Position numbers and translations under genes: made by a program
Virus record (IMG/VR): IMGVR_UViG_3300028028_000001
Coordinates: 32,739-96,738 of that record
Strand: one strand, 5' to 3'
Source of the DNA: a virus
DNA length: 64,000 nt
Notes under the pieces: model-generated
Seen by the model: the letters and a program-made list of their open reading frames with translations, nothing else
What the model was told of the DNA's origin: nothing
Database searches by the model: none
In this document: positions 9,137 to 53,231 of the stretch, piece after piece
How positions within the stretch are numbered: the stretch's first letter is position 1
Layout: every line of letters starts with the position of its first letter

Positions 9137-12100
9137 ATGTTCACCCCCTGCAAGTGCTCCAAAGGCTGCAAGGCCCACGCCATCATCACAGCGCTCGACA
9201 TGGACGGGACCACCTACCCTGTGCGAGTCCCCTATGAGCACCGCTACTCCTCGATCGGCTGGGGCGACCGTCCGCGCGTGCGGTTCGGTGATTCCGTAGC
9301 CGTCGAAGTGGCGCGCGGAGAGAAGGGCGTCCAGGCTCTTGACGAACTCGGCAACCTTCACCGGTTGAACCATGGCGCGTTCTCCACCTGGATTCCGGAA
9401 AGGAAGGGCAAGGCTCTCAAAAAGGCGGAAGTCAAAGCCGGTCAACGATGGATCACGGTCCACCCCGGCGGCGAAGGCTCAACGGGCGTCCCCATCCTGA
9501 TTCAGGAGGAGAAGGACGGAACCCACCGAGTCGTGGCAGGCGCGGGCGGGAAACTGACGCACCTCCGGCTTGAGAACGTCAAGAGCGCGGACGAATACGC
9601 CAAGTCCAAAGCCGACAAGAAGGCCGCAAAGAAAGAGAAGGACAAGACCGCTCCGAAGGAAGTCAAGGAGACCAAGAAGGAAGCCCACGAGAAGAAGCGC
9701 GAGGCCGAGCGCCAGTTCGTCAAAAAGGTGAGCACGAAACTCGGGGGAGTCTCCGAGGATCGCAAGCGTGACGAATCCGAATCTCCCGCCGTCGCACGTC
9801 GGCTTGACGCGCAGCATCATCGAAAGCAGGTCAACGAGGCCAAGAAGCGCGCCCACGGAGCCATGCAGGCGGTCGTTGCAGAGCGGACCGGGCAGGAGAG
9901 GGCAAAGGCGCTCACCTCCGAGGATACTCCCGAGGTCTCCGCTCACGTTCAGGAAACGATTCGCGCAGAACTCGACGACGAGGAAGCCGCTCAGAAGGCG
10001 CGCAAGGAAGCCCGCGCGCCAAAGATGATGGCCTCCCGGGCCGTGGACCCCGGAGCGCAAGAGAAAGCCGTCGTCCATGCCGTTGAAGCGGTCAAGCAGG
10101 CCCCTGAGCAGCTCGACAAGACACTTGAAGCGCTCGGCGGGCGTACTGACTCGGGCGAGGTTCTCCGGCTCTCTGTCGTGCCTGCCGTGGAGGCGAAACG
10201 CCGGTCCCTGCAAGCGCTCCAGGACGCCCAGATCATCCATGAAGCCCTATCGAACGGGCCCCCGAAAGACGAGAAGCAGCAGGCGATCGTGGAGCAGGCC
10301 CTGGGCGGCGCGAAACTCGGAACCGAGGAGGCCAAGGAAGCACTCCAGACCGCCATGGTCTCGAAGGTCAACGAAGCCGAGCGGCACGAAGTCCAGTCCA
10401 GGAAGCTCGACCAGATCGCACGGGACAAGGGCGAAGACGTGGCCGACCGTGCTCTCCGGGCGACCGACGCGGCAAGGGCCATCGCTCGCGAAACACAGGA
10501 AGCGCGGCGCCTGGGACTCGACAATCCCGAGAAGACGCCCCTTACTGTGCCTGAAACCGATGAACTCATGGACGTGGTGAAGGACCTCCAGGACCTGAAA
10601 GCGAAGACCCGAGCCCTGAAGAACGTCGTCAAGGACGCGGAAAAGGGCAACTTCGATCGGTCGCGCCGTGCGTTCAAGATGGACGTTCAAGCGGCCCCCA
10701 AAGACGTGGAGATGTCGATCGAGGAAGAGGTTCAGCGCTCACTCACGGAGCAGCTCCTCGGCGCGGTCAAGACCGATCGCCCGGAGTACATCCAGGGCGT
10801 CACCGCTGGGCACTATGACGCCCTCGCGGATGTCGGCTTGCAGATTGGCGGCCAGCGCTACCTGGACCGCCCCACGGTGGACGCTCTCGGCGCGAAGAAT
10901 GCCGCGATCCTACTCCGGTATGGGCTTGACCAGGACGGGCACGATATGGACGCCGTTCGCCAGGCCGTGGAAGAGTCGCACGTTGACGCGGTGAAAACCG
11001 AAGCCGCCAAAGCCATCGAGAAAGCGCGATCCTACGTCCCTGGGTTGGTCCACGAAGTCGATACAACCGAAGACGCCGAAGCAGCAATGGCGCACTTGGA
11101 CGCCCACGAATCCGAGATCGTCTCAGCGCAGAAGGCCCTTTCCTCGGCGATCGGGAGGCTCGAAGGTACGGCTACCCTTGGCCAGGCGCTGCGCGACAAG
11201 ATGCCCGATAGCCTTTCCGTTCGGGGCACCTCTCTTGAATCGTCTCAGCAGTGGGTTCATTCGCTCGGGCTTCACCCTGCCGATTACGAGGTGAACGCTG
11301 CACGGAACGAGATTACGATCCCCCGCCGATCGTGGGACAAACTGCTATCCCGAGACTCGCGCGAGGACATCGACAACCGGCGCGTGGTCAACGAGATCAA
11401 GGCAGGTCAGCACGACATCAAGGGTTGGCTTCCTCCCGGCATTGCCTATCGAGAGGCCTCCACGTTCACCGCGCCCGTTCCCAGCGCTCCTCGCATGTGG
11501 GAACCGCTTTCGTTCGATGGCGACCTCGACGAGGCCATCAAGACACACGTCGGCGCCCGGTTGGCATCCGGTGAGCATATCGGGGAGATTGCGTCTGACA
11601 TCTCCTCGGAAGGTGTTGCTTCGCAGGCCCCGAGCGCGAAGGAATACCGCGCGGCACTCGAGCGGCACTTCCCTCTCTACAAGGAAGGTGGAAAGGAACG
11701 GCTCACCGAAGCCCTGGCGGCTCTTGGACCTCGGCCGGAGAACGAGAACGAGGCGATCGAGTGGGACCGAAAAGCCATTAAGGCGGAGCAAGCGGAAAAG
11801 GTAGGCCTGACGCACTTCGCCGACAAGTGGGAGTCCTGGGCCCAGGACTACATGGAAAAGAAGCACGGTGGCGAGGGAGCCTATCACTCGCAGAACCTGC
11901 ATCCCGAGGACGTGGCGACCCGTGAGGCCATTTTCCGGACGCTGGCGGATCACCCGGAGGGCAAGATCGCCTTCAAGCCGTCGGGTCAACTGACACCGCA
12001 GGAAGAGGGGGTGATTCGGGACCGGTACTATCAGAGGATGGGGATCGACCCGAAGGTGAAGGTTGACGAGGCAAGGTTCCAAAGGGAGATGGCCCAGGCC

Positions 12101-14839
12101 AGTATGCCGGAAGGGCAGTGGGAGACCATGGTCAAGGAACACGAAGGAGAAGGCATAACTCCAGGGCAGGCCAAGGCCCGAGCCATGTCTCACCTTGGAG
12201 AGAAGGTCAAGAATGAGGCGTATTACCAAGAACTGACGAAACCATGGGACAAGACGGCTGGAACTGCATCTATAGACGAACCAAAGGATGTAAAACAACG
12301 TCGCCAATACCTGACGCGCGAACTCGCCGCACTCGGGAAAGAGCCCGACCGCCAAGACAAAGAGGCCAACCAGAAATGGCAAGAAGCGCGTAATGCTGTT
12401 TTTGAAAAGGCCGACACCGATTCTGGCAAGGAAGAACTTGATGAGACCAGTCCCGAATACCGGGCTTGGCAAAAACGACGTGATGCTGTTCTTGCCCGTC
12501 ATCCGCGAGCGGGTATGCAAAGCGCAATCGATAGTCTCGACAAAGCCGATCCGGAGTACGCAAGCAAAGTCGAAGCCATCAAACAGGACGCAGCGACCGC
12601 CCCCACCGCCTGGGGCAACTACGTTGAAGCGCACGGTTCGCGGCAACTGGCGATCGAGGCCCTGCAAGATGAGATGAGGGGCGAATTCGTCAAGACGTAC
12701 CAGGAGCACCACGGAAAGGTCACCGGGAACCCGCTACGGGTGGGCGTTCAGGACGTAACCAACAAGGCGCGCCATATCCGGGCAACAGGATCCCCCGAGG
12801 AAATCGCGCAAGCCAGGGCAGAGGAAAGGTCCAGGCTATCCAGTCTCCAGAAGAGGCAGGGCGGCGGATTTACCGAGATGGGCGGTGCAGGGTCGGCGAA
12901 AGCCCTGTTCACAAAAGCACTTGAACAAGACGAAATCGACAAGTCAAGTCAACTCGCTATGTTCGGATCGGCTACCTCCTCGGTGGCGGACCTCCCCGAA
13001 AAGAAGATCGAGCCGAAGACCGGCCAGCGGTGGAGTCTCGGAACCCGCGCGGAATCGCAACTTGAGAGCGTCATCAATGGCGGCCTGGGCCAGCAGTTTC
13101 AACCAGGAAGCCCGATCCGGCTTTTCGGTGGGCTCAACATGGATGGCGATCGAATCCACCAGCAGCGGGTTCTTCGCCAACTCGATCGGGTCAAAAGGAT
13201 GGCGGCGCTTCTCGGCACGGGCGCGGGGAAGTCGCTCACCTCGATCGCAGGGTTCACCCAGGCGCACGCGAAGGGTGAGGCATCCCACGGGCTCTATCTG
13301 GTCCCTGCCGCAGTCCAAGACCAGTTCGGCGGCGAGATGTTGCGCTACACGCAGCCCGGGAAATACAACTGGGCAACGGGTGGCGGAAAGAGCCACGCGG
13401 AACGGGTACGGATGCTCAAGGATCCGTCTATTCATATGCGGGTTATGACACACCAGTCCTTCCGGGATACTGCCCTAAAACTCATGGCAGACCACCATGG
13501 TCGGACTACCGAGAAGATGACAGAGGACTTCGGAAAGGCAGACCCAAAGACCCGCGCCCGGTGGATGCGTGAGGCCTTCGATGCCCACGGGATCCCCCGC
13601 CACTTCGTCTATTATGACGAGGCGCACACCGCGACCTCCGAGAACGAGAAGAGCGCCTCTCTGACTCATGACGTTGCGACGGCGGTAACGCATCCGTCGA
13701 ACGCTACCCATCTGCTTCTCGGGACCGCCACCCCCACGAAGAACAACACCGGAGAGATGCACTCATGGGCCTCGCTACTCGATCCGGACAAGTACGCCGA
13801 TCGGTGGAAGTTCATGCAGAACTTTGGGAGGGAAACCGCCTGGAACCCGAACGCGATCCGTCAAGAACTTGGGCACCGGGTTTACACCGCCAGAATCGAC
13901 CCCGAAGGAGTATCCCGAACAGACACCGACAACCCGACCGTGGAGGAAAAGGAAGTCCAGACTGGTGAGAATATGTGGGGTCCAACCTACGAAAAGCAGA
14001 AGGTGAAGTCTGCCGGCAAGCCGATCGAACTTCACCCTACCCAGAAGGCCCGGGTAGATGAGATCACGGCGGCTTATGAGCAGGCATCCACCTCGTTCAA
14101 GAAGGGCCATGTGGACGTGGAGAGCATCCGGAAAATCAACCCGGCACCGTTCGAGGGTAAGACCGATGAGCAGGCCCAAAGCATCGCGCGGAACATGATG
14201 AAGGGCCTTGGCTTCACCCGTGACGCGGCGCTGGAGCGGGCGATCAACCGCTCGCCTGTGGGCCAGAACGCGAAACTGGACGCCCTGGCCTCTGTCGTCC
14301 AGCATGACCTCGCGCAGAACTGGACCGATCGGAAAGGCAACGCGCGCAAGGGGAAGGCCTCGATCATCTTTTCGGACTCGGCGCAGGATGGAAAACTCAT
14401 CAACCAGCACCTTCGCTCTCTTGGCGTCCGCTCGGCTTTCTATCACGGTGGGCTTCCGAACGAGCAGAAAGAAGCCATCCGCACCGGGTTCCAACCCGAG
14501 CAAGGCGAGCCGAAGCACGACGTTATCGTCGCCACGTCGGCGGCCGAGGCGGGTCTGAACCTCCAACGGGCAAGCGTGCTGCACAATTACGACGTGCCCC
14601 AGACTGAGAAGAGCCACGCGCAGAGAGCCGGGCGAGCGTACCGGCAGGGGCAACTTGGCGACGTGGAGATTCACAACTGGCACACGAACACGGCGTTCGA
14701 GCGTCGGGCGCTTCAACTGCTCAAGGAGAAGCGGTATCTCGCTTCCGTGTTTCAGACTCCGATCGGCCATATGGACGACACAGGAACGGGCCTGCGTTAT
14801 ACTCGGATCATCTCACGCAAACATGAGGCTGCGGCATGA
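9137..14839 (+). CDS. giant (1900 aa) polyvalent-type protein with C-terminal SNF2-family helicase
   Basis: GTGAGKS (13214-13234), DEAH (13616-13627), LLLGTATPTKNN, helicase-C motifs VIVATSAAEAGLNLQ and HAQRAGRAYRQGQ; long helical N-terminal ~1300 aa; QLAMF at 12950-12964. Confidence 0.8.
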   Translation: MFTPCKCSKGCKAHAIITALDMDGTTYPVRVPYEHRYSSIGWGDRPRVRFGDSVAVEVARGEKGVQALDELGNLHRLNHGAFSTWIPERKGKALKKAEVKAGQRWITVHPGGEGSTGVPILIQEEKDGTHRVVAGAGGKLTHLRLENVKSADEYAKSKADKKAAKKEKDKTAPKEVKETKKEAHEKKREAERQFVKKVSTKLGGVSEDRKRDESESPAVARRLDAQHHRKQVNEAKKRAHGAMQAVVAERTGQERAKALTSEDTPEVSAHVQETIRAELDDEEAAQKARKEARAPKMMASRAVDPGAQEKAVVHAVEAVKQAPEQLDKTLEALGGRTDSGEVLRLSVVPAVEAKRRSLQALQDAQIIHEALSNGPPKDEKQQAIVEQALGGAKLGTEEAKEALQTAMVSKVNEAERHEVQSRKLDQIARDKGEDVADRALRATDAARAIARETQEARRLGLDNPEKTPLTVPETDELMDVVKDLQDLKAKTRALKNVVKDAEKGNFDRSRRAFKMDVQAAPKDVEMSIEEEVQRSLTEQLLGAVKTDRPEYIQGVTAGHYDALADVGLQIGGQRYLDRPTVDALGAKNAAILLRYGLDQDGHDMDAVRQAVEESHVDAVKTEAAKAIEKARSYVPGLVHEVDTTEDAEAAMAHLDAHESEIVSAQKALSSAIGRLEGTATLGQALRDKMPDSLSVRGTSLESSQQWVHSLGLHPADYEVNAARNEITIPRRSWDKLLSRDSREDIDNRRVVNEIKAGQHDIKGWLPPGIAYREASTFTAPVPSAPRMWEPLSFDGDLDEAIKTHVGARLASGEHIGEIASDISSEGVASQAPSAKEYRAALERHFPLYKEGGKERLTEALAALGPRPENENEAIEWDRKAIKAEQAEKVGLTHFADKWESWAQDYMEKKHGGEGAYHSQNLHPEDVATREAIFRTLADHPEGKIAFKPSGQLTPQEEGVIRDRYYQRMGIDPKVKVDEARFQREMAQASMPEGQWETMVKEHEGEGITPGQAKARAMSHLGEKVKNEAYYQELTKPWDKTAGTASIDEPKDVKQRRQYLTRELAALGKEPDRQDKEANQKWQEARNAVFEKADTDSGKEELDETSPEYRAWQKRRDAVLARHPRAGMQSAIDSLDKADPEYASKVEAIKQDAATAPTAWGNYVEAHGSRQLAIEALQDEMRGEFVKTYQEHHGKVTGNPLRVGVQDVTNKARHIRATGSPEEIAQARAEERSRLSSLQKRQGGGFTEMGGAGSAKALFTKALEQDEIDKSSQLAMFGSATSSVADLPEKKIEPKTGQRWSLGTRAESQLESVINGGLGQQFQPGSPIRLFGGLNMDGDRIHQQRVLRQLDRVKRMAALLGTGAGKSLTSIAGFTQAHAKGEASHGLYLVPAAVQDQFGGEMLRYTQPGKYNWATGGGKSHAERVRMLKDPSIHMRVMTHQSFRDTALKLMADHHGRTTEKMTEDFGKADPKTRARWMREAFDAHGIPRHFVYYDEAHTATSENEKSASLTHDVATAVTHPSNATHLLLGTATPTKNNTGEMHSWASLLDPDKYADRWKFMQNFGRETAWNPNAIRQELGHRVYTARIDPEGVSRTDTDNPTVEEKEVQTGENMWGPTYEKQKVKSAGKPIELHPTQKARVDEITAAYEQASTSFKKGHVDVESIRKINPAPFEGKTDEQAQSIARNMMKGLGFTRDAALERAINRSPVGQNAKLDALASVVQHDLAQNWTDRKGNARKGKASIIFSDSAQDGKLINQHLRSLGVRSAFYHGGLPNEQKEAIRTGFQPEQGEPKHDVIVATSAAEAGLNLQRASVLHNYDVPQTEKSHAQRAGRAYRQGQLGDVEIHNWHTNTAFERRALQLLKEKRYLASVFQTPIGHMDDTGTGLRYTRIISRKHEAAA

Positions 14840-17039: not shown

Positions 17040-18641
17040 ATGAACCCTCAGACTCTCCTCCTCGCCTTGACGATGGCCTATTCGTTCTCCGCTGACGGCT
17101 CCGTCTCGATGAACAAAGCCGTCACATCCAGCACGATCGCCAGCGCGGTCCCCGAGTCGCTGGAAATGCAGGCCGCCATCGCGACCTGGAGCGACCGAAC
17201 CCCGGGCGTCAACACCCTGCTCAAGCTCATCCCGCGCGCCGTCGCCACGAAGCAGGAGCACAAGTACGTCAGCCTCGACTCCTGGGGCGACGTGGCCCAC
17301 CAGACCGGCATGGGCACCGAGACCGGCACCCCCGCGAGCCTCCAGTTCTCCTCGACCACCCCGGTTGTGTGGCTCCAGATCTGCAACCAGGCGACCGACG
17401 TCTACTTCATGGCCGAGCTCCAGAAGATGGTCGGCATTGAAGGGACCGTGGATCCCGTCGTCGTCGCCACCAACGCCACCCTCAAGCGTGAAGCGTGGCT
17501 CACCAACCGCAACATGTACCTGCTCGACACCAGTAAGAGCCGCGCAGGCGTCGGCGCCGCCGGTCGCGTCTACAAGGGCGTCCTTCAGCAGGTTCGCGAG
17601 GGCACCGACGGCACCACGGGTTCCTCGACCTTCGGCTCGCACGAGATCGACCTTCGTGGCGCGGACATCACCTCCGATAACATCCGCACCCAGATCGCCC
17701 ACATCCTGGAGTACTACGGCATGGCCAACGTGCTCCTGATGCCGCCCACCCCGCGAGGCAACCTGGAAAGCTCCCTCGAAGGCGCCAACCGCATCACCAT
17801 GGGCGGCGTGGACATTCGAACCCACCTTCTGGGCAACTCGATCGCCGGCCTCCAGAGCCAGGGCAACGTCATGTGGTTCGCCACCGAGCTCGCGCTCAGC
17901 GCGAAGAACTCGAAGCCCCGATACACCGCGCCTCCCGCCGGCTGGGCAACCACCACGGTCCCGACCGTCGTGTCTGCCGTGGTCGCTGGTGGAACCTCGG
18001 GCAACGCCTCGCTGTGGGGCGCCTCGGACGATGGCAACATCTACCACGTCGTCACCGAGGTTGTCAACGAGCTCGAAGGCGCGGGAACCCGTGAGCCTGC
18101 CGGCGCCGCCTACAACGCGGTCGCAGTCGGGCAGGAAGTCCGCCTGACCCTCACCCCGGGTTCCGTGGATGCCGATCGCCTCCGCGTCTACCGTGGCCAC
18201 GATACCGACGTGAGCCCCGGCGGCACCGCTGGCGCCGTGACTGAGGCTTGGTTCCTCTTCGAGGTGGCCGCGAACGGCGCGGTTCCCGTCGTGACCTACG
18301 ACTACAACCAGAGCCTGCCCCGCACCGCCTGGGCCGTCGCGCTCGACATCCAGAGCCCGGTCGCCGACGCCATGTTCAACCCGAGAGGCAACTCCCTGGG
18401 CGCCAACTATGCCGACGCCAACGACGCCGCGATCTCGCAGATCGGCTACCGCGACAACGGTATGACCTCGAACGTGAGCTTCGCGCAGCTCGGGCCCGCT
18501 CCCATGCGCCTCCAGCTCGCCCCCGTGGCCCTGACCGCCCCGATGGGCCGCCCCGTGATCCTCCGCGTCGGCGCCCCCGTCGTGCGGATCCCGCAGCGCT
18601 GCTTCACCTTCAAGAACGTTCGTGACGTGGTTTACAACTAG
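17040..18641 (+). CDS. major capsid protein candidate
   Basis: 533-aa ORF after protease and scaffold candidates, followed by a terminator; call by synteny only. Confidence 0.65.
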   Translation: MNPQTLLLALTMAYSFSADGSVSMNKAVTSSTIASAVPESLEMQAAIATWSDRTPGVNTLLKLIPRAVATKQEHKYVSLDSWGDVAHQTGMGTETGTPASLQFSSTTPVVWLQICNQATDVYFMAELQKMVGIEGTVDPVVVATNATLKREAWLTNRNMYLLDTSKSRAGVGAAGRVYKGVLQQVREGTDGTTGSSTFGSHEIDLRGADITSDNIRTQIAHILEYYGMANVLLMPPTPRGNLESSLEGANRITMGGVDIRTHLLGNSIAGLQSQGNVMWFATELALSAKNSKPRYTAPPAGWATTTVPTVVSAVVAGGTSGNASLWGASDDGNIYHVVTEVVNELEGAGTREPAGAAYNAVAVGQEVRLTLTPGSVDADRLRVYRGHDTDVSPGGTAGAVTEAWFLFEVAANGAVPVVTYDYNQSLPRTAWAVALDIQSPVADAMFNPRGNSLGANYADANDAAISQIGYRDNGMTSNVSFAQLGPAPMRLQLAPVALTAPMGRPVILRVGAPVVRIPQRCFTFKNVRDVVYN

Positions 18642-31586: not shown

Positions 31587-32932
31587 TGGCCACCCCCCGC
31601 TCACGAACAGACCTTGCCCGAGAATGGATCCGCCGACTCGTCGGCTATTCCCCCTCGGTCTCCTGGTTCGGGTCGGGTGGCGTGGCTCTGGCATTCTCGA
31701 AGGCCACCGGGGACCTTGCCGAGATCGCCCAGGACCTCTTCGTCTCGATGCGCAGGCGCTTGACGCTCCTGGCATCTTCGGAATCGGACCTGGATGATAT
31801 CGCCCAGGAACTCGGCACGGCGCGACTCACGGACGCACGGGCGCACGTTTACGCCGTGGTGGTTCCCTGGTCCGCTTCCGTTGTCGCGGTCGTGAGCGCG
31901 GGGAATGACTTCCTTCAAGTGGATGACGCCAGCAGGTTCCTCGCTCTTGACTCCCTTCGGATCCGGGGATCCTCGGGAACGTCCGAGGCGCTTGTCGTGA
32001 TCGCCATCGTCGGAAACGTGATCGAGTGCTTGCCTCTTACTGGTACCTACAACCCGCTGACGGAAGGTGTCTCGGTCCTGCTGCGGACTACGATCCCGGT
32101 TGGATCCACGATCGTCTCGCAGGCCGGTGTTTCATTTCAGACTCTGGCGACCGTGATTGCTGGTGACGCAAACCCACTTTTTGACGGTGAAGCCGCGTTC
32201 GTAGCGCTCGCCGACAAGGTGGATTGTGAATGCTCGGTCGCTGGTGCGGCGGGCAACATCGAGCCGGACTCCCTGGATTCCATCACCGGAGCCCCACGAA
32301 TCGCCCGGGTCTACAACCCTGAAGGCGGCTATGGCGGCGACTCTGAACAGGACGCTCAACTCAAATACCGGGCCTCCCATCGTGCGACACTGGCGAATCA
32401 GGAGACCTCGGCGTGGTTGTTCGCCCTTGCCCGCGAGGGCAACCCGAACACTCTCCGGGCCATCAAGGACACGACAACGGCGCTTTCCACATTGAAGTTT
32501 CGGCTTCTGAAAAGAACGGGAGCATCCTTTTCGGCTGCTGAACTCACCGAGTTGAAAGCCTACATGGAGGCCCGCTTTCGGTCGCAGTATCAAGCCGATA
32601 TTGGCAATGTGACCCTGACGGCCATCACAGTTGAGGCGCGGGTGAAGATGTCCTCGGGCGCCAGTTTCCAGACCTCCTGGCGCGCTGCTGCTTCGGGAAT
32701 GGCGGCCTATCTCGACTATCGGGTCTGGGCCTTTGGGGGGACCGTTGACAACTCCGAGCTTCTTCAAATCCTCCAGAACACGGCGGGCATTGCGAGCGTT
32801 GAAACAGCATCTTTTCTTCCTGCTGTTCCGGTTCCAGTTTCCGCGCTGTCCCTCCCGGTACTGGTCTACTTCGCGATCGAGGATCAAGACACGGGTGAGA
32901 CGTTCGGCGGGAATCTTGCGGTGAGTTTCTGA
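31586..32932 (+). CDS. baseplate J-like protein
   Basis: GNIEPDSLDSI...NPEGGYGGDSEQDAQLKYR resembles gpJ/gp47 family signature. Confidence 0.6.
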   Translation: MATPRSRTDLAREWIRRLVGYSPSVSWFGSGGVALAFSKATGDLAEIAQDLFVSMRRRLTLLASSESDLDDIAQELGTARLTDARAHVYAVVVPWSASVVAVVSAGNDFLQVDDASRFLALDSLRIRGSSGTSEALVVIAIVGNVIECLPLTGTYNPLTEGVSVLLRTTIPVGSTIVSQAGVSFQTLATVIAGDANPLFDGEAAFVALADKVDCECSVAGAAGNIEPDSLDSITGAPRIARVYNPEGGYGGDSEQDAQLKYRASHRATLANQETSAWLFALAREGNPNTLRAIKDTTTALSTLKFRLLKRTGASFSAAELTELKAYMEARFRSQYQADIGNVTLTAITVEARVKMSSGASFQTSWRAAASGMAAYLDYRVWAFGGTVDNSELLQILQNTAGIASVETASFLPAVPVPVSALSLPVLVYFAIEDQDTGETFGGNLAVSF

Positions 32933-42695: not shown

Positions 42696-43445
42696 TCACT
42701 CCTCGCACCCCTCGAAAATGATGGATTCAAGGTGCCCTTCCAGCAGAGGGAAACTCATCCACTTGTCCGGATCCTGTCGCAACAGCCGGAGGTCAAGCCA
42801 GCAGTTGAAGCGCTCTTCCAAGTTGGCCCGGGTCAACCCCGCGCGTACTTCGGGTTCGATGAACCCCTCCGAATCGCTGGTGTCCACGGGTTCGACCACC
42901 GGCACGGGCTCCACGGTCGTCTTCTTCTTCGCGACAACGACTCTCCGTCTGACTTCGGGCGCCCGCGCGAGCTCTTCCAGCCGTCCGGCTTTCTCCGCCG
43001 CTCGATAGTGCTTGTGGCACAACCCGCCCTTGTGATCCGGAGTCGAGCAACCCTCGATCCGGCAAACTCCGGGCGTCGTGGAGTTGCCGATTTTCATCTC
43101 GACAACCGGAGCCACGGGCGCGAACTCATCAAGTCGGTTTTCCGCGAGCGCGCGCTGGTAGTGGCGCTCACAGAGGCCCTTGCGCTTTGCCCCGAATCGG
43201 CACCCTTCGACGTTGCACCGGCCATAGACCGGATTGGAAGCCCGGTGCATTTCATCGGGGATCTTACGCATCGTGCTCTCCGGGGGTTCGCAGAGACCCG
43301 CCTTGATGACCTGCTCTCGGTGTTCTCGGCAAAGGTGGCGCGTTTCAGGGGACCGTAGAGGACCCGTGGCGTTGCGATAGATCGTGACGCGCTCGGTTCC
43401 GCCGAAAGAGGCGGTGCATCCTGTCACGTCGCAGGGGTGGGTCAT
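42696..43445 (-). CDS. protein with three C-x3-GC-x7-9-GLC-x2-H(Y/R) zinc-ribbon repeats (putative DNA binding)
   Basis: CDVTGC...HLCREHR, CNVEGCRFGAKRKGLCERHYQR, CRIEGCSTPDHKGGLCHKHYR; start set at MTHPC because upstream codons are the tRNA. Confidence 0.6.
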   Translation of the reverse strand: MTHPCDVTGCTASFGGTERVTIYRNATGPLRSPETRHLCREHREQVIKAGLCEPPESTMRKIPDEMHRASNPVYGRCNVEGCRFGAKRKGLCERHYQRALAENRLDEFAPVAPVVEMKIGNSTTPGVCRIEGCSTPDHKGGLCHKHYRAAEKAGRLEELARAPEVRRRVVVAKKKTTVEPVPVVEPVDTSDSEGFIEPEVRAGLTRANLEERFNCWLDLRLLRQDPDKWMSFPLLEGHLESIIFEGCEE

Positions 43446-43464: not shown

Positions 43465-43536
43465 TGGACCCGGTGGGAGTCGAACCCACGACATCCTGCT
43501 TGCAAGGCAGGCGCTCTCCCGCTGAGCTACGGGCCC
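43465..43536 (-). tRNA. tRNA-Ala (anticodon UGC), no encoded CCA
   Basis: GGGCCCGTAGCTCAGCGGGAGAGCGCCTGCCTTGCAAGCAGGATGTCGTGGGTTCGACTCCCACCGGGTCCA folds as a cloverleaf; G3:U70 pair; TTCGACT T-loop. Confidence 0.9.
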
Positions 43537-43544
43537 GGTGGTGG

Positions 43545-43808
43545 TCAGATCCCCGGGTGGGGACCCGTGCGCCAGTCGAAGCCGCCGAGCACGGAGTCGA
43601 ACCACTCGCCCGGGTCGGCTCCCCAGCCGTCTTCATCGTCTTCGTCGCCCGTGTCGTCGCCGTCGCCCGTGTCCTCGGTTTCGCCGGTGTCAGGATCGGG
43701 TTCGATCGGGGAATCCCATCCCGGCGGGTGGAATTCGTCCGGGATGACGCGGATCGTGGGGCCGTCGAGCGGACTGGCGGCGAGAAGGGCGAGAAGTAGG
43801 AATCTCAT
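43545..43808 (-). CDS. secreted highly acidic protein candidate
   Basis: MRFLLLALLAASP signal; DTGETEDTGDGDDTGDEDDEDG. Confidence 0.5.
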   Translation of the reverse strand: MRFLLLALLAASPLDGPTIRVIPDEFHPPGWDSPIEPDPDTGETEDTGDGDDTGDEDDEDGWGADPGEWFDSVLGGFDWRTGPHPGI

Positions 43809-43966
43809 GGTTTCTCCTGTTTTGGTGGTTCAGTCTTGTGGGTAGTAACATGTTGAGCAGAAAGGGCAAGGCCTCGCGCGATTCGGGCGCGGCGGTAGAA
43901 GAATCGGAAGAGGTCAGCGAAAAGCCAGCCGAGAAGGAAACCGGCGATGAGAAGGGCGTAGTTCAT
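43805..43966 (-). CDS. small single-pass membrane protein
   Basis: MNYALLIAGFLLGWLFADLF; ATGA coupling with radical-SAM gene. Confidence 0.45.
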   Translation of the reverse strand: MNYALLIAGFLLGWLFADLFRFFYRRARIARGLALSAQHVTTHKTEPPKQEKP

Positions 43967-44808
43967 CTCTCGATCTCCTGATTGGGTTCGCCGTCCAGAG
44001 GGCCGGCCAGTTTCGCGATCAATGCCGGTCGGAACCATCGCCGTTGAAAAGCGCGCCATTCTGGTTTGAATTGCCCGCCGTCATCTCGCCAGAGCATCGC
44101 GGCGGGAAAGATCCCAGTCTCCAGGACCGCTCGAAGCCGCGTTTCTGCTTTCTCGAAGGTGTCGCTCGGAAACCCGATCAGGACGTAGCAGCGGACCCGA
44201 TGGCCCGCAAAGTGCTGTCCGGCTTCCTTGAGCACCTCCGCTGCCCGCTTGACGTGATCCCAATCGTCAGGGGTGTCGTAGGCCAAGAAGATGCTTTCTG
44301 GGTGTAGTTTGACGAGAGCAGCGGCAACGTCGCGCGTTATCCGTTTCGGTTCGAGCCCGCCTGTGAATTGCGGACGTTTCGGTTGCCGAGCGAGCATGGC
44401 GAATACGTCGGTAATGTGCCCATCGGAGCAAGCTAATAGGTTGTCGTCGAGCACGTTCCAACCATCATGAATCGAGAGTTCTCGGATTGTGCCTTCGCGC
44501 TTCGGTACAGAGCAGAACCAGCAGCGATTTGGGCACCCGCGAGACGTGATCGTGTAGCCGTGTCGGAGGTACTGGCCGGACTCGAAGTCACCTCCGGGCA
44601 GGCCAAGAGCAGGGCCGCCTACCTGGACAGGCGCAATCCTGGCCCACGAATCCGCAAGCATCCGAGCGACCGGGAGATCCCAGGTAAACGCCACCGATAC
44701 CCTAACCTCTGTGATTCCGTCTGGAATGAACAGCGGGGGATCTCCGATGAACGTCAGCGGATCGGTTGGCGTTGCTTGGGTTCGCCGTGGGAAAACGCGC
44801 GCAATCAT
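43963..44808 (-). CDS. radical SAM domain protein
   Basis: TSRGCPNRCWFCSV (CxxxCxxC); ATG 44808 in ATGA overlap with upstream stop. Confidence 0.7.
   Translation of the reverse strand: MIARVFPRRTQATPTDPLTFIGDPPLFIPDGITEVRVSVAFTWDLPVARMLADSWARIAPVQVGGPALGLPGGDFESGQYLRHGYTITSRGCPNRCWFCSVPKREGTIRELSIHDGWNVLDDNLLACSDGHITDVFAMLARQPKRPQFTGGLEPKRITRDVAAALVKLHPESIFLAYDTPDDWDHVKRAAEVLKEAGQHFAGHRVRCYVLIGFPSDTFEKAETRLRAVLETGIFPAAMLWRDDGGQFKPEWRAFQRRWFRPALIAKLAGPLDGEPNQEIER
43973..43995 (-). repeat. 23-nt direct repeat, copy 1 (3' end of radical-SAM gene plus SD of next gene)
   Basis: minus-strand GACGGCGAACCCAATCAGGAGAT, identical to 44815-44837. Confidence 0.9.
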
Positions 44809-45767
44809 GGAGCTATCTCCTGATTGGGTTCGCCGTCGCCAGGAAACTCCCGCCATTCCCGACCGTCGATAATTGCCCCGGTGTTGTGCTTTCCGAGGCG
44901 AGAAAGAATAGTCACCGGGAAAGCGTCTTCATCGCGGGCCCGCATGAAGTCGATACCCATGTTCAGAACGCGCCCCTTCTTGTCCATGCAGGCATCCGTC
45001 CTGGAAATATGGGTACTGGCCTTGCTGACCCAACGCTGATAGTTCCACATTTCATCGAATACCGGCATCCCGTTACACATATCCACCATTCCGGGCCCGT
45101 ATTCCCCCCACTGTTTAAAAAAATACGGAACCCCAGCGGCCAAACACTGATCGCGCAACCCACGAACCCAATCCGGATGGGTAGGCCGCGCGTTCGGGCC
45201 CGACTCACCGCCAGCGATAACCCAATGGATCCCGTCCAGATTCAACTGGATAGGCCCAAGAAGAGGCTCGCAGGACAGGAAGCGAACGGGCGCTTTGACC
45301 TGTCGAAGGAACGGATACCGCTCATCGAAGCGCTGTTGATTCTCGGCAGTGACCCCGGCCCAGGCGTTGATCGGCCACCAGTAGGACCGATTCCAGGCCA
45401 GCATCGCCTCGGGTCGCTTCGTCAGGAGTTGCCAGATCAGCCCGCGCTTGGTTTCCTCGATGAGTTCCCAGAGTCGTCGCCGGGCCATGACGAGTTCGGG
45501 AAGTTCCTCGAACACGTCGCACGTCGAGCCGCAAAAGACCTTGACCCGCGTGCCTTCCTTCTCGGCCTTTCGACTCCAGGCGATCGGCTGCTTCCAGTAG
45601 GAGTCGCTGGCCATCACCCGAGGATGATCGCCCCATTCCGCGTGGCGTCTCATGCCGGGCGGTAGGGTTTCGGCGTAGCAGTTTTTGCAGGCCTCGGAGA
45701 CCTTTCGGCATCCTGACCATGGATTGAAGGTATTTCCGGTCCACGCTATGTTGGAGTTTTCGCTCAT
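44805..45767 (-). CDS. phage Gp37/Gp68 family protein (DUF5131)
   Basis: IAWTGNTFNPWSGCRKVSEACKNCYAE, LLTKRP, FLSCEPLLGPI, VIAGGESGPNARP, FFFKQWG. Confidence 0.8.
   Translation of the reverse strand: MSENSNIAWTGNTFNPWSGCRKVSEACKNCYAETLPPGMRRHAEWGDHPRVMASDSYWKQPIAWSRKAEKEGTRVKVFCGSTCDVFEELPELVMARRRLWELIEETKRGLIWQLLTKRPEAMLAWNRSYWWPINAWAGVTAENQQRFDERYPFLRQVKAPVRFLSCEPLLGPIQLNLDGIHWVIAGGESGPNARPTHPDWVRGLRDQCLAAGVPYFFKQWGEYGPGMVDMCNGMPVFDEMWNYQRWVSKASTHISRTDACMDKKGRVLNMGIDFMRARDEDAFPVTILSRLGKHNTGAIIDGREWREFPGDGEPNQEIAP
44815..44837 (-). repeat. 23-nt direct repeat, copy 2 (3' end of Gp37/Gp68 gene plus SD of radical-SAM gene)
   Basis: identical 23-mer; both host proteins therefore end in DGEPNQEI; 13-nt partial copy at 44778-44790. 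Confidence 0.9.
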
Positions 45768-47813: not shown

Positions 47814-48191
47814 CTACTCCTTCACGATCGCACCGGATTCCCGGAGCATCCGGGCGGCGGCGGCGAGGGTGACCGTGGAACCGCTCCGATCGCATCGCAG
47901 TTCCGACTGCCCGATGGTGGTTGGCGCGGCTTCGACGAGGTTCTTGGCCTCCATGAGACCGATGCCGGTCAACTCGCGGATCGCCTTGATGACGTTGATC
48001 TTGTTCTCGCCCCATGAGACGAGGAGGATCGCGTCGCCGGGAATGGGCACGTCCATCTTGGAGAGAGTCGCGGTCTTCTCTGCGATGGCGCCGCGGAGTA
48101 TCTCCGCTCGCGTCAACGCATCGCGGCCGATCCGCTCCAGTTCCTCCGCTCTCGCGCGGAGTACTTCGATTTCCTGTTTCAATCGTTCCAT
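47814..48191 (-). CDS. ribosomal protein bL12 (L7/L12) C-terminal-domain homologue with unrelated coiled-coil N-terminus
   Basis: ILLVSWGENKINVIKAIRELTGIGLMEAKNLVEAAP...LRESGAIVKE aligns by eye with bL12 CTD ([27 protein letters not shown]...LEEAGAEVEVK). Confidence 0.75.
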   Translation of the reverse strand: MERLKQEIEVLRARAEELERIGRDALTRAEILRGAIAEKTATLSKMDVPIPGDAILLVSWGENKINVIKAIRELTGIGLMEAKNLVEAAPTTIGQSELRCDRSGSTVTLAAAARMLRESGAIVKE

Positions 48192-50958: not shown

Positions 50959-51339
50959 TCACGGTTTGGGAATGAAGAAAGGATCATCCCATGGCGGATA
51001 GGAAACGACAGGAATCCCCTTCGCCCGCGCAAACGCGACTTCCGTTTCCAACCCGGCGGATACCTCCATCGGCGCGCATCTCCAAACGGCATCGCAGACT
51101 GCCACAAGCGCAAGGTCCCGAGAGATGTAAAAGCCCTGTGGATCCTTGGGATTCGTGAGTCCCGCTTCGTGCATCAGGTGATGGTGGATCCATGAGACCA
51201 CCACGAACCCGCTATTTGTTGCGAGCGCGCAGAAGGCCAGGTATCGGCGGATATTGCGCTCCTTGTTGCCCCATTCCGGGGAGCCGTCGCCTTGTAGGGG
51301 GTGGGCTATGTAGATTAGGGGGCCGGGGTGGGGGTTCAT
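50959..51339 (-). CDS. nucleoside 2-deoxyribosyltransferase-like protein (DUF4406/DUF1937-like)
   Basis: PLIYIAHPLQGD...DLALVAVCDAVW...SAGLETEVAFARAKGIPVV; ATG 51339 in ATGA overlap. Confidence 0.55.
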   Translation of the reverse strand: MNPHPGPLIYIAHPLQGDGSPEWGNKERNIRRYLAFCALATNSGFVVVSWIHHHLMHEAGLTNPKDPQGFYISRDLALVAVCDAVWRCAPMEVSAGLETEVAFARAKGIPVVSYPPWDDPFFIPKP

Positions 51340-52364
51340 CTTGCGTGCTCCCATTCAATCCATTGTTTCAGCACGAGCCCGACAGCATGAGCGACGGGAG
51401 GCACTACGGCGTTCCCGAGCGCACAGATTTTCGCCGCGTGGACTCTGGCGGGGGTCCATCCGGACGGCTTGACGCTTCCGTCCATCCAATCGGGAATCCC
51501 ATGAACGCCTCGCACCAGGGGATCGAAAGGCGATGCCCCGGACCACGGAGCCGCCTCATCTCCCGCCCGACACTCGCGGTCCCCTGCTCCGTCCCCGCTT
51601 TCCAGTCTGCCGACATGAGCGTCGGTAGCAGTTCGGATCGCGGAGTCGAGCCAATCCGCAAAGCGGGGAGCAGGCTCATGTGATGCAGATCCCCTCCCGC
51701 CCCGCATCGTTCCCCATCGCTCGCTCGAAGCGTCGGCAGCAGCCCGCGCTGCGCCTTCGTGGTTCGCCCTTCCTTGGGGCGTCGGGATCCGCCCATCTCC
51801 GATGCCGTCAGGGTCGGTAGCAGTTCCGTCCGCAGGTCGCGCCCACGTTGCGGCGCAGCGGGCCTGATTCCCCCGGTCCCCATCGCTGAGCACAGAGTCG
51901 GCAAGAGCGAGAACAAACCCTCTTGACCGCTCGTGTCTGGCTCCCACGTCACAGGCCCGCACGCGCAGGACAGGACTGGTCCGATAGCCGAGATCTGCAA
52001 GTCCGCCCCGCACCACGGGCACCCACGTCTTCTTGGCATTCCAGACGTTCTCGACGACGACAGCGCGAGGTCTGGCTTCTCGGATGACTCGAAGCATCTC
52101 GAACCAGAGACCCGATCGGGCTCCGTCGAAGCCGGCTTTTCGGCCAGCGGTGGACAAGTCCTGGCAAGGGAATCCGCCGCAAATAACATCTGCTGAGACA
52201 TCTCGAAGCTCCTTGATGTCCGGGTAAATCGGACAGTTCCAATGCGCTCGAAGGACCGAGCGACAAAATGCATCGGCCTCGCATTGCCAGGCGACGGGGC
52301 CGAATCCCGCGAGTTCAAGGCCCATTTCGAGCCCGCCTATGCCGCTGAACAGGGAGCCGATCAT
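51336..52364 (-). CDS. DNA (cytosine-5) methyltransferase; target-recognition region appears out of frame (possible pseudogene or indel artefact)
   Basis: this frame: FSGIGGLE (I), GGFPCQDLS (IV), VVVENV (VI), ARHERSRGFVLA (VIII), LGNAVVPPVA (X); the +1 frame (ORF 51404..52318) holds five LLP(T/A)L repeats and FMGFPIGWTE. Confidence 0.8.
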   Translation of the reverse strand: MIGSLFSGIGGLEMGLELAGFGPVAWQCEADAFCRSVLRAHWNCPIYPDIKELRDVSADVICGGFPCQDLSTAGRKAGFDGARSGLWFEMLRVIREARPRAVVVENVWNAKKTWVPVVRGGLADLGYRTSPVLRVRACDVGARHERSRGFVLALADSVLSDGDRGNQARCAATWARPADGTATDPDGIGDGRIPTPQGRANHEGAARAAADASSERWGTMRGGRGSASHEPAPRFADWLDSAIRTATDAHVGRLESGDGAGDRECRAGDEAAPWSGASPFDPLVRGVHGIPDWMDGSVKPSGWTPARVHAAKICALGNAVVPPVAHAVGLVLKQWIEWEHAR

Positions 52365-52663
52365 CCCGTCATCCTCCCCAAAACCAAACCCGCCAGCACA
52401 AGAGCCTCACGCGAAACCTCGTCCAATCCGTCCCGACGTGCATAGACGGCCAAGTCAAGCGCCTCCTGGAGTCCGTCCTTGAGCCCGCGACCGTCGCCGT
52501 AGGGAAGCGGCTTACCGTGCTTCTCGATGCCCATGAGCCGGCGTTCGATGCAGACATCTCGAAGCAAACCTTGGGGCATTTCGTCGATGATGTCCTGCCA
52601 AACGTCGCCTTCCCCTTGGTTGGAGCCTACGGGGAGGGTGGTTACGAGGTCACGCACGTTCAT
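52361..52663 (-). CDS. hypothetical protein (weak all-alpha NTP-pyrophosphohydrolase-like pattern)
   Basis: GIEKHGKPLPYGDGRGLKDGLQEALDLAVYA; weak. Confidence 0.4.
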   Translation of the reverse strand: MNVRDLVTTLPVGSNQGEGDVWQDIIDEMPQGLLRDVCIERRLMGIEKHGKPLPYGDGRGLKDGLQEALDLAVYARRDGLDEVSREALVLAGLVLGRMTG

Positions 52664-53231
52664 TGAACACCTCCGGACAAGCCTTGACCAGTTCAGCGCG
52701 AACGAGAACCATCAAGGCGCGCATCTGCGGGTGAGTCGCCGGGGCCTCGCGGAGGGACAGGACATGGAGCCATTCCCGGAAGTTGCACGTCATCACGATC
52801 TCGGTCTTGAGACCGTTTGGCAGGAAGTACCGGGCTTGCTGGGGAGTCCTACCGCGCGCGAGGCACCTGGAATAGTGGCGTTCGATGGCTGCGAGGAGAA
52901 TCCGATCGGCGTCATCAAGGTCGAAGTCCACGGGGGCGATAAAACGGATCGAGTCGCGGTAGTTGCAGTATCGCGTTGACTCCTGCGAGTAGGCCGCGAT
53001 CCTGTGCCTCACCAGTTCATGCGTCACGCCCCGATCGGTAACGATCCGGATCGTGGCGCTTGCGTGCTCCAACACGGACAGGTGCCCGCGCCGCATGAGC
53101 ATGGCGATGAAAGGGGCGGTTGACTCCGGGTTTCCGGTACTTTGGTAGCAGGTGCGCCCGGCGGACTCGATGAGCCGAGCCGATTCGGGAGTCACGGAAA
53201 GAAGTTCGGCAGACTGATTGACTACTTGCAT
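52650..53231 (-). CDS. thyX: flavin-dependent thymidylate synthase ThyX
   Basis: RHRIAAYSQESTRY (RHRxxSxxxxSxR ThyX signature), LEHASATIRI. Confidence 0.85.
   Translation of the reverse strand: MQVVNQSAELLSVTPESARLIESAGRTCYQSTGNPESTAPFIAMLMRRGHLSVLEHASATIRIVTDRGVTHELVRHRIAAYSQESTRYCNYRDSIRFIAPVDFDLDDADRILLAAIERHYSRCLARGRTPQQARYFLPNGLKTEIVMTCNFREWLHVLSLREAPATHPQMRALMVLVRAELVKACPEVFNERA

Follow-up and report, generated by a model that had tools for sequence, protein, structure and literature searches.

The window analysed here (the whole stretch of 64,000 nt, positions 32,739 to 96,738 of the IMG/VR virus record IMGVR_UViG_3300028028_000001) contains on its minus strand a radical S-adenosylmethionine (SAM) gene of 281 aa (43963..44808) directly behind a DUF5131 gene of the phage Gp37/Gp68 family, 320 aa (44805..45767), and the radical-SAM gene was probably inserted behind DUF5131 with duplication of the 3' tail of the latter, the 23-nt direct repeat at its two sides being a recombination footprint. 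Each breakpoint was resolved to the base by independent relatives, one per gene, namely the DUF5131 gene on the ENA contig L237 and the radical-SAM gene on the ENA contig L039.

The repeat GACGGCGAACCCAATCAGGAGAT occurs in exactly two copies in the 64 kb, both on the minus strand, at 44815-44837 (copy 1) and 43973-43995 (copy 2), and no further copies with up to three mismatches were found in the window, the chance expectation being 0 (100 shuffles). In DUF5131, copy 1 makes up codons -10 to -3, and its AGGAG serves the radical-SAM gene as Shine-Dalgarno sequence; copy 2 falls within the radical-SAM open reading frame (ORF), at its 3' end, and gives a Shine-Dalgarno sequence to a 53-aa ORF (MNYALLIAGFLLGWLFADLF..., 43805..43966, minus strand, an independent gene call), which is coupled to the radical-SAM stop codon by the ATGA at the end of the radical-SAM tail, the AGGAG being at the optimal spacing from both downstream start codons. 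Both copies are read in the same frame as DGEPNQEI, followed by two differing codons (AP and ER, respectively) and a stop, and on the 3' side of the repeat stand six unrelated bases, AGCTCC after copy 1 and CGAGAG after copy 2, and then the ATGA stop/start overlap, which at the DUF5131/radical-SAM junction occupies 44805-44808. The preliminary description of this DNA had reported the 23-mer twice together with two coupled genes for proteins with a cysteine triad, and this was confirmed by exact search, by the ATGA overlaps and by the PF07505 and PF04055 matches. It had also placed the repeat in the last eight codons of each gene and let the two copies flank the radical-SAM gene exactly; the register at both 3' ends and the Shine-Dalgarno role hold, with one copy on each side of the gene, but the codons concerned are -10 to -3 and the second copy is a part of the radical-SAM ORF itself. 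A start of this ORF at the upstream ATG at 44856 had to be given up in favour of the ATG at 44808, which gives the 281 aa. The arrangement of DUF5131, repeat and radical-SAM gene is reproduced in a second, independent assembly (Logan SRR8449812, 51-kb contig).

The search for DUF5131 relatives without the radical-SAM insert, proposed as a check, was successful, since exact-cluster look-up returned the protein P0241, a DUF5131 of 94% aa identity encoded on L237, an independent metagenome contig from which the radical-SAM gene is absent. In the blastn comparison, L237 matches the window at 91.85% nt identity over a block that opens at 45767, with the DUF5131 start codon, and closes precisely at 44815, where copy 1 ends; no homology was detected beyond this block on either side. 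The 23-mer is present on L237 once, at the DUF5131 3' end, with 26/26 identical positions when counting the CTG that also precedes window copy 2, and it is followed by GGACAA and then by GTGA, with which an unrelated Zn-finger-like gene begins. The P0241 tail, LDGEPNQEMDK-stop, aligns with the tail of the window radical-SAM protein, LDGEPNQEIER-stop, over 37 nt at 89% (L237 1316-1352 to window 43998-43962). Because L237 has a single copy at this place without the radical-SAM gene, and because the tails match, the 23-mer is considered native to the DUF5131 3' end, and the C-terminus of the radical-SAM protein (43963..43998, minus strand) appears from this alignment with the L237 DUF5131 3' end to be a transplanted ancestral DUF5131 tail. 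The same 23-mer thus marks where, downstream, the radical-SAM gene, the 53-aa ORF and, in L237, the Zn-finger-like gene have been attached, three different genes in all.

The conserved DUF5131 domain stops at ...REFP (residue 309), the tail GDGEPNQEIAP being non-conserved and predicted to be disordered, and the homologues likewise end at ...EFP with variable tails of 0-16 residues. The radical-SAM homologues end variably soon after W(A/F)RPAxI, with a variable tail that often holds the ribosome-binding site of an overlapping downstream gene, and a tail of the DGEPNQEI type was seen in none of the radical-SAM homologues examined. The repeat lies, therefore, outside both conserved domains. In the AlphaFold2 (AF2) models, the mean predicted local distance difference test (pLDDT) value is 89.5 for DUF5131, with residues 312-320 below 50, and 84 for the radical-SAM protein, whose C-terminal tail is disordered; from this disorder both tails are predicted to be dispensable.

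On the radical-SAM side, the closest relative, P0002 (84% aa identity) on L039, shares about 83% of nucleotides with the window from the ATG to +795 only, as determined by sliding identity. L039 has no DUF5131 upstream and no DGEPNQEI tail, and its flanks are unrelated to the window; the radical-SAM ORF is an independent module. The suspicion of a cassette boundary, voiced in the preliminary description, was borne out in this way, with a single repeat copy and no radical-SAM gene on L237, where homology stops at the last base of the repeat, and with the ORF alone shared by L039. No close relative was found to carry DUF5131 and the radical-SAM gene together, and the nearest relative of either lacks the other. 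An imperfect 22-nt direct repeat (20/22) was also observed to flank the radical-SAM gene of L039 (78-99 and 961-983), where two small hydrophobic ORFs, situated on the upstream and the downstream side of the gene, each have it as their first 7 codons.

Searches for the 23-mer in IMG/VR, JGI metagenomes and GTDB genomes, with synonymous changes allowed, returned only chance matches in unrelated proteins, and from its absence from other contigs of these collections it is concluded that the 23-mer is lineage-private and no widely shared linker. Apart from the two copies, a third, partial copy of the 5' half of the repeat (ACGGCGAACCCAAGCA, 15/16) is found at 44773..44788 on the minus strand, in radical-SAM codons 7-12 (the conserved FPRRTQATP), and a degenerate inverted copy of the repeat core (CGAACCCAATCCGGA, 14/15) lies at 45163-45177 on the plus strand, inside the conserved HPDWVR motif of DUF5131; these may reflect chance, microhomology or another cause. 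The commonest 11-mer of the window is ACGGCGAACCC, with 5 occurrences.

The events may be reconstructed as follows. The original arrangement would have been a DUF5131 gene ending in ...FPG-LDGEPNQEIER-stop, with an ATGA overlap with the start of the 53-aa ORF, which we infer to be the original downstream partner of DUF5131; this small protein has, by eye, one hydrophobic N-terminal helix, read as a membrane helix, and gave no family match in the profile searches. A segment of about 0.82 kb, consisting of the radical-SAM ORF only and a 6-base leader, would then have been joined into the operon, presumably through two crossovers (illegitimate or at microhomologies) or two template switches, the six-base spacer AGCTCC (44809..44814, minus strand), unrelated to both CGAGAG of copy 2 and GGACAA of L237, being the left end of the inserted segment. 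On the recipient, the right-hand joint would have lain upstream of the left-hand one by 23-26 nt, and because of this the DUF5131 tail with its embedded Shine-Dalgarno sequence would have been duplicated. After the insertion, DUF5131 would have kept one copy with the new ending ...EIAP-stop, the old tail would have passed to the radical-SAM protein, and the radical-SAM gene and the 53-aa ORF would both have retained a ribosome-binding site and an ATGA overlap. Since the newcomer and the small ORF keep these elements, the insertion would be expression-neutral for the operon, which may explain its survival, selection having probably retained the product that preserved both ribosome-binding sites and both overlaps.

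The inserted segment, one ORF with a 6-nt leader, has no promoter, terminator, inverted repeats or recombinase of its own, and simple consensus scans around 43963-44808 revealed no promoter or terminator beyond the shuffle expectation, so that the insert relies on the operon for its expression. A classical moron was also considered for this segment and rejected, since a promoter and a terminator of its own flanking 43963-44808 were not found. The removal of one 842-nt repeat unit in silico gives an intact 320-aa DUF5131 ending in ...EIER-stop and overlapping by ATGA with the start of the 53-aa ORF; the earlier statement that recombination between the copies would preserve the coupling is upheld by this simulated deletion, and through homologous recombination or slippage between the two identical 23-mers the radical-SAM gene could now be lost precisely.

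Flanking direct repeats of at least 15 nt were counted in 76 independent, de-duplicated radical-SAM loci and were found in 5 of them, versus 0/78 DUF5131 control loci and 8/467 other ORFs (p 0.014-0.027), which is a modest enrichment. The repeats of these five loci are 15-56 nt long, all different in sequence and most of them in the tail-plus-Shine-Dalgarno register. The 15-nt repeat of the locus L001 encodes WLAKV, the native C-terminal motif of the upstream gene family, and so has the same polarity as in the window. The upstream ORF of L037 is a chimeric remnant, and the searches for empty sites of the L037 and L025 repeats and for the reconstructed intact gene of L037 matched only these loci themselves. 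In L027, a ribosome-binding module of 15-18 nt, GAAAGGATAGGGAAA[TGA], stands before each of three genes in a row (4658, 4981, 5819), the radical-SAM gene being one of them, which suggests serial insertions at one junction. Genes unrelated to the radical-SAM family are flanked by exact direct repeats of 52 nt in L019 (1291-2016) and 30 nt in L012 (3841-4095), from which it follows that junction duplication is general in these phage accessory regions. Two copies of the radical-SAM family about 14 kb apart were observed in the 63.6-kb record IMGVR_UViG_3300048599_000861 (loci L003/L089 and L084).

Several points weigh against the insertion with tail duplication. The exact empty site, with DUF5131 directly followed by the 53-aa ORF, was not observed, as L237 has another downstream gene and is just 1.5 kb long, and the predicted deletion product is absent from a collection of 15 billion proteins. 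Copy 1 is without the CTG found before copy 2 and in L237, and one extra 3-nt change is needed. No donor was identified, microhomology at the joints could not be established, and the third-codon-position GC content (GC3) of the radical-SAM gene is unremarkable, giving no sign of foreign composition. The enrichment in flanking repeats also fell with the larger de-duplicated sample, from 5/36 (p 0.001) to 5/76 (p about 0.02).

The reverse polarity, with the two-copy state being older and the L237 lineage having lost the radical-SAM gene via the repeats and later swapped its downstream gene, is unlikely, although deletion between 23-nt repeats is mechanistically easy and gives a clean product in simulation, L237 is indeed single-copy, and other phages, too, have DUF5131 immediately before a gene of the radical-SAM family. 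Such a history leaves the DUF5131-type tail on the radical-SAM protein unexplained, so that an insertion with duplication would still be needed; in addition, the downstream gene of L237 is unrelated to the 53-aa ORF, and the nearest radical-SAM relative stands in a context without DUF5131. We consider it very unlikely that the 23-mer is no recombination scar but acts in cis, as a module for ribosome binding or translation coupling or as a site bound by protein or RNA, its copies being held identical by selection or gene conversion. The position of AGGAG before both start codons, the L027 module before three consecutive genes and the two degenerate core copies nearby are in accordance with such a role; however, only two copies exist in 64 kb, the other coupled junctions are unrelated in sequence, no shared or significant RNA fold was predicted at the repeats (z -0.76 and +1.34), the identity runs through the wobble positions of a disordered, non-conserved peptide, and the homology with L237 breaks exactly at the repeat end. 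Scarcely credible is the transfer by a dedicated mobile element, whether an integron cassette, a transposon with target-site duplication or homing-endonuclease mobility, which could be thought of from the direct repeats flanking the gene and from an HNH-like gene two genes downstream in the window and directly downstream in L025. The insert is one ORF with its leader, devoid of transposase and of terminal inverted repeats; neither an attC-like hairpin nor inverted repeats at the segment ends were found; the repeats vary between loci in sequence and length and are target-derived; and HNH genes account for only 1/126 neighbouring ORFs. An integron gene cassette was accordingly rejected, neither repeat having a significant attC-type fold and the repeats differing between loci, and so was a transposable element with target-site duplication, for which transposase and terminal inverted repeats are missing and the duplications vary between loci from 15 to 56 nt.

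The insertion with tail duplication concerns the junction, and the question of whether DUF5131 and the radical-SAM protein form an enzyme pair, as the preliminary description supposed, has to be weighed beside it. An obligate two-enzyme system moving and working as a unit is quite improbable. In its favour, profile searches over about 125 radical-SAM loci (about 78 independent) showed the gene directly upstream of the radical-SAM one to be DUF5131-like in the window, L014, L074, L122, L129 and L138, with ATGA coupling in the window and L122; such adjacency is counted in about 8 of the about 78 independent loci, or about a tenth, and in five more loci DUF5131-like copies stand no farther than 5 kb away. 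In L074, L129 and L138 both proteins are relatively close and co-diverging, which suggests their co-inheritance in this clade, and NCBIfam defines a "radical SAM mobile pair". However, about 90% of the radical-SAM loci lack a nearby DUF5131, and 0/80 DUF5131-centred loci have a radical-SAM gene within 1.5 kb; the 94% DUF5131 relative is without the radical-SAM gene and the 84% radical-SAM relative is without DUF5131; in L080 and L095 the radical-SAM gene is intact but the DUF5131 before it truncated; and against the NCBIfam model TIGR04471, with its cut-off of 355 bits, DUF5131 reaches 38.9 bits. The part of the supposed pairing that stands is thus the adjacency recurring in a tenth of independent loci and the co-divergence in one clade. 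The opposite verdict, "not a pair at all", drawn from tblastn, was in its turn softened once the profile searches had found divergent DUF5131 upstream in more loci.

The truncated N-terminal DUF5131 genes of L080 (1191-1481, 97 aa) and L095 (1157-1495, 113 aa) keep the Cys motif and stand directly upstream of the intact radical-SAM genes of these loci, possibly as what is left after insertions into or beside DUF5131. The DUF5131 subfamily in L074 (2241-2984), L129 and L138 has a canonical CxxxCxxC motif (GCLHGCEYC), compared with Cx6CxxC in the window. Neighbour clustering revealed no single conserved partner of the radical-SAM gene, the contexts being diverse in the 76 independent loci, and the most frequent neighbours are DNA methyltransferases (9/126 neighbouring ORFs) and genes of 3'-phosphoadenosine-5'-phosphosulfate (PAPS)-reductase-like proteins. 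The two genes are facultative neighbours in a variable DNA-modification region and no obligate pair.

The DUF5131 protein of the window is a member of PF07505 (phage Gp37-Gp68) by its full-length profile match, covering positions 1-243 of 243 (E 9e-76; phrog_2045), and by its N-terminal three-Cys motif C20-x6-C27-x2-C30, in which all three cysteines are invariant among the homologues aligned. TcmP, which we take to be the usual partner of DUF5131, was not found among the 13 window proteins scanned with NCBIfam. In INPHARED, blastn gave only short DUF5131 matches of about 72% identity. The protein matches the candidate defence systems PDC-M41B and PDC-M30B in the defence-system models of PADLOC, and its Foldseek matches, to TigE, UV damage endonuclease, spore photoproduct lyase (SPL) and biotin synthase (BioB), are weak (E about 3e-3 or weaker). 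RadicalSAM.org lists the DUF5131 family as a radical-SAM subgroup (PMC9477430).

The 281-aa protein is assigned to the radical SAM superfamily, with reductive SAM cleavage as its predicted activity, by its motif, Pfam score and partial TIM-barrel fold: CPNRCWFC is a CxxxCxxC motif whose three cysteines, C92, C96 and C99, do not vary among 61 homologues, and the score against PF04055, 29.9 bits, is just above the gathering cut-off of 29.5 (phrog_9298, E 7e-24). No NCBIfam model was reached and no PADLOC match was obtained for it. Its layout, a small N-terminal alpha/beta domain with a CxxxCxxC core, together with a GFPxxT-type motif, is shared with the methylthiotransferases RimO/MiaB and with B12-binding-like radical-SAM enzymes, whereas the TRAM domain and the N-terminal Cys triad for a second cluster of RimO/MiaB are lacking. 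The best Foldseek match in PDB is RimO 4jc0 (E 4e-5, TM 0.47), followed by AprD4 and lysine 2,3-aminomutase, with TM-scores of about 0.5 or less, and fold searches in BFVD and PDB led to no specific assignment of function for either protein. A nucleic-acid-directed, modifying role is plausible from the gene neighbourhoods and the weak fold similarity. A further-reaching proposal, that the radical-SAM family is an unusually mobile accessory gene repeatedly re-inserted at coupled junctions with preference for DUF5131 3' ends, and with DUF5131 builds a facultative two-radical-SAM module making or removing an undescribed nucleic-acid modification, for example in counter-defence, is speculative and on the present evidence improbable. 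With more than 6000 homologues and 438 IMG/VR matches, a large phage radical-SAM family without an assigned function is flagged here, and DUF5131 with the radical-SAM protein makes a defined pair for enzymologists.

The window is phage-like, and the locus belongs to the early operon of a phage or prophage. The plus strand of about 1-41 kb carries structural genes, including the major head protein (17040-18641) and a tail protein, with a 1900-aa ORF (9137-14839) observed within this module, and the minus strand of about 42-64 kb carries early genes for a helicase, a sliding-clamp-like protein, a DNA methyltransferase (51336-52364), a thymidylate-synthase-like protein (phrog_85; 52650-53231), a RecU/RusA-like resolvase and a helix-turn-helix (HTH) regulator. 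The thymidylate-synthase-like gene and the DNA methyltransferase, both in this early region, are relevant if the phage modifies its own DNA. The proteins studied here have identical counterparts among the NCBI entries of a "Thermoleophilia bacterium" metagenome-assembled genome (96.7-kb contig). ATGA/GTGA coupling is the rule in the operon (12 of its 19 junctions), with nothing special to the DUF5131/radical-SAM junctions, and the remaining coupled junctions have sequences unrelated to the 23-mer. Also on the minus strand of the early operon are tRNA-Ala(TGC) (43465-43536), three genes downstream of the radical-SAM gene, directly followed by the gene of a 249-aa Cys/His-rich protein (42696-43445) with HNH-endonuclease-like PHROG matches, and a 125-aa gene (47814-48191) with the C-terminal domain of ribosomal protein L7/L12 (PF00542), unusual for a phage and matching TIGR00855 under its cut-off (E 1.5e-12).

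Among the systems known to us from collections, the NCBIfam radical SAM mobile pair (TIGR04471, protein A) resembles the window in having two adjoining radical-SAM-type proteins on mobile DNA, with a weak similarity of DUF5131 to protein A (E 6e-10). It differs in that DUF5131 remains at 38.9 of the required 355 bits, the radical-SAM protein matches no pair-B model and the adjacency is facultative, and the membership was rejected, neither protein reaching the equivalog cut-offs. In lambdoid phages, short conserved boundary (linker) sequences are located at mosaic junctions. The window is similar to them in that one short junction sequence is joined to three different downstream genes, but its 23-mer is private to the lineage.

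The closest precedents are those of mycobacteriophages, described by Pope et al. (2011, PMC3029335), who also cite the boundary-sequence model for phage mosaic junctions. Genes 43-46 of LRRHood, compared with Cali, are a 1.35-kb insertion of four genes between 29-bp direct repeats, and relatives without the insert have a single copy of the repeat, at the very 3' terminus of the upstream gene (PMC3029335). The window has likewise short direct repeats (23 bp) around extra DNA and a single copy in the insert-free relative L237, whereas its insert is a single 0.82-kb ORF, and L237 also differs downstream, so that the exact empty site is not seen. In gene 68 of Island3, about 50 bp, or 18 residues, are duplicated, and gp68 has no homologues (PMC3029335); the anatomy is the same as that of LDGEPNQEI on the DUF5131 and radical-SAM proteins, but the duplication is of 23-26 bp, or 8-9 residues, in the window, and the radical-SAM family has thousands of members. 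Flanking repeats duplicating the upstream 3' end, a single-copy insert-free relative and homology limited to the ORF, the features characteristic of LRRHood and Island3, are all found here. The window is, thus, a textbook-quality natural example of a phage operon with tight coupling that has gained a single gene and kept its expression, and represents not a new kind of system but a clean, ordinary footprint of phage single-gene swapping, as already published in mycobacteriophages.

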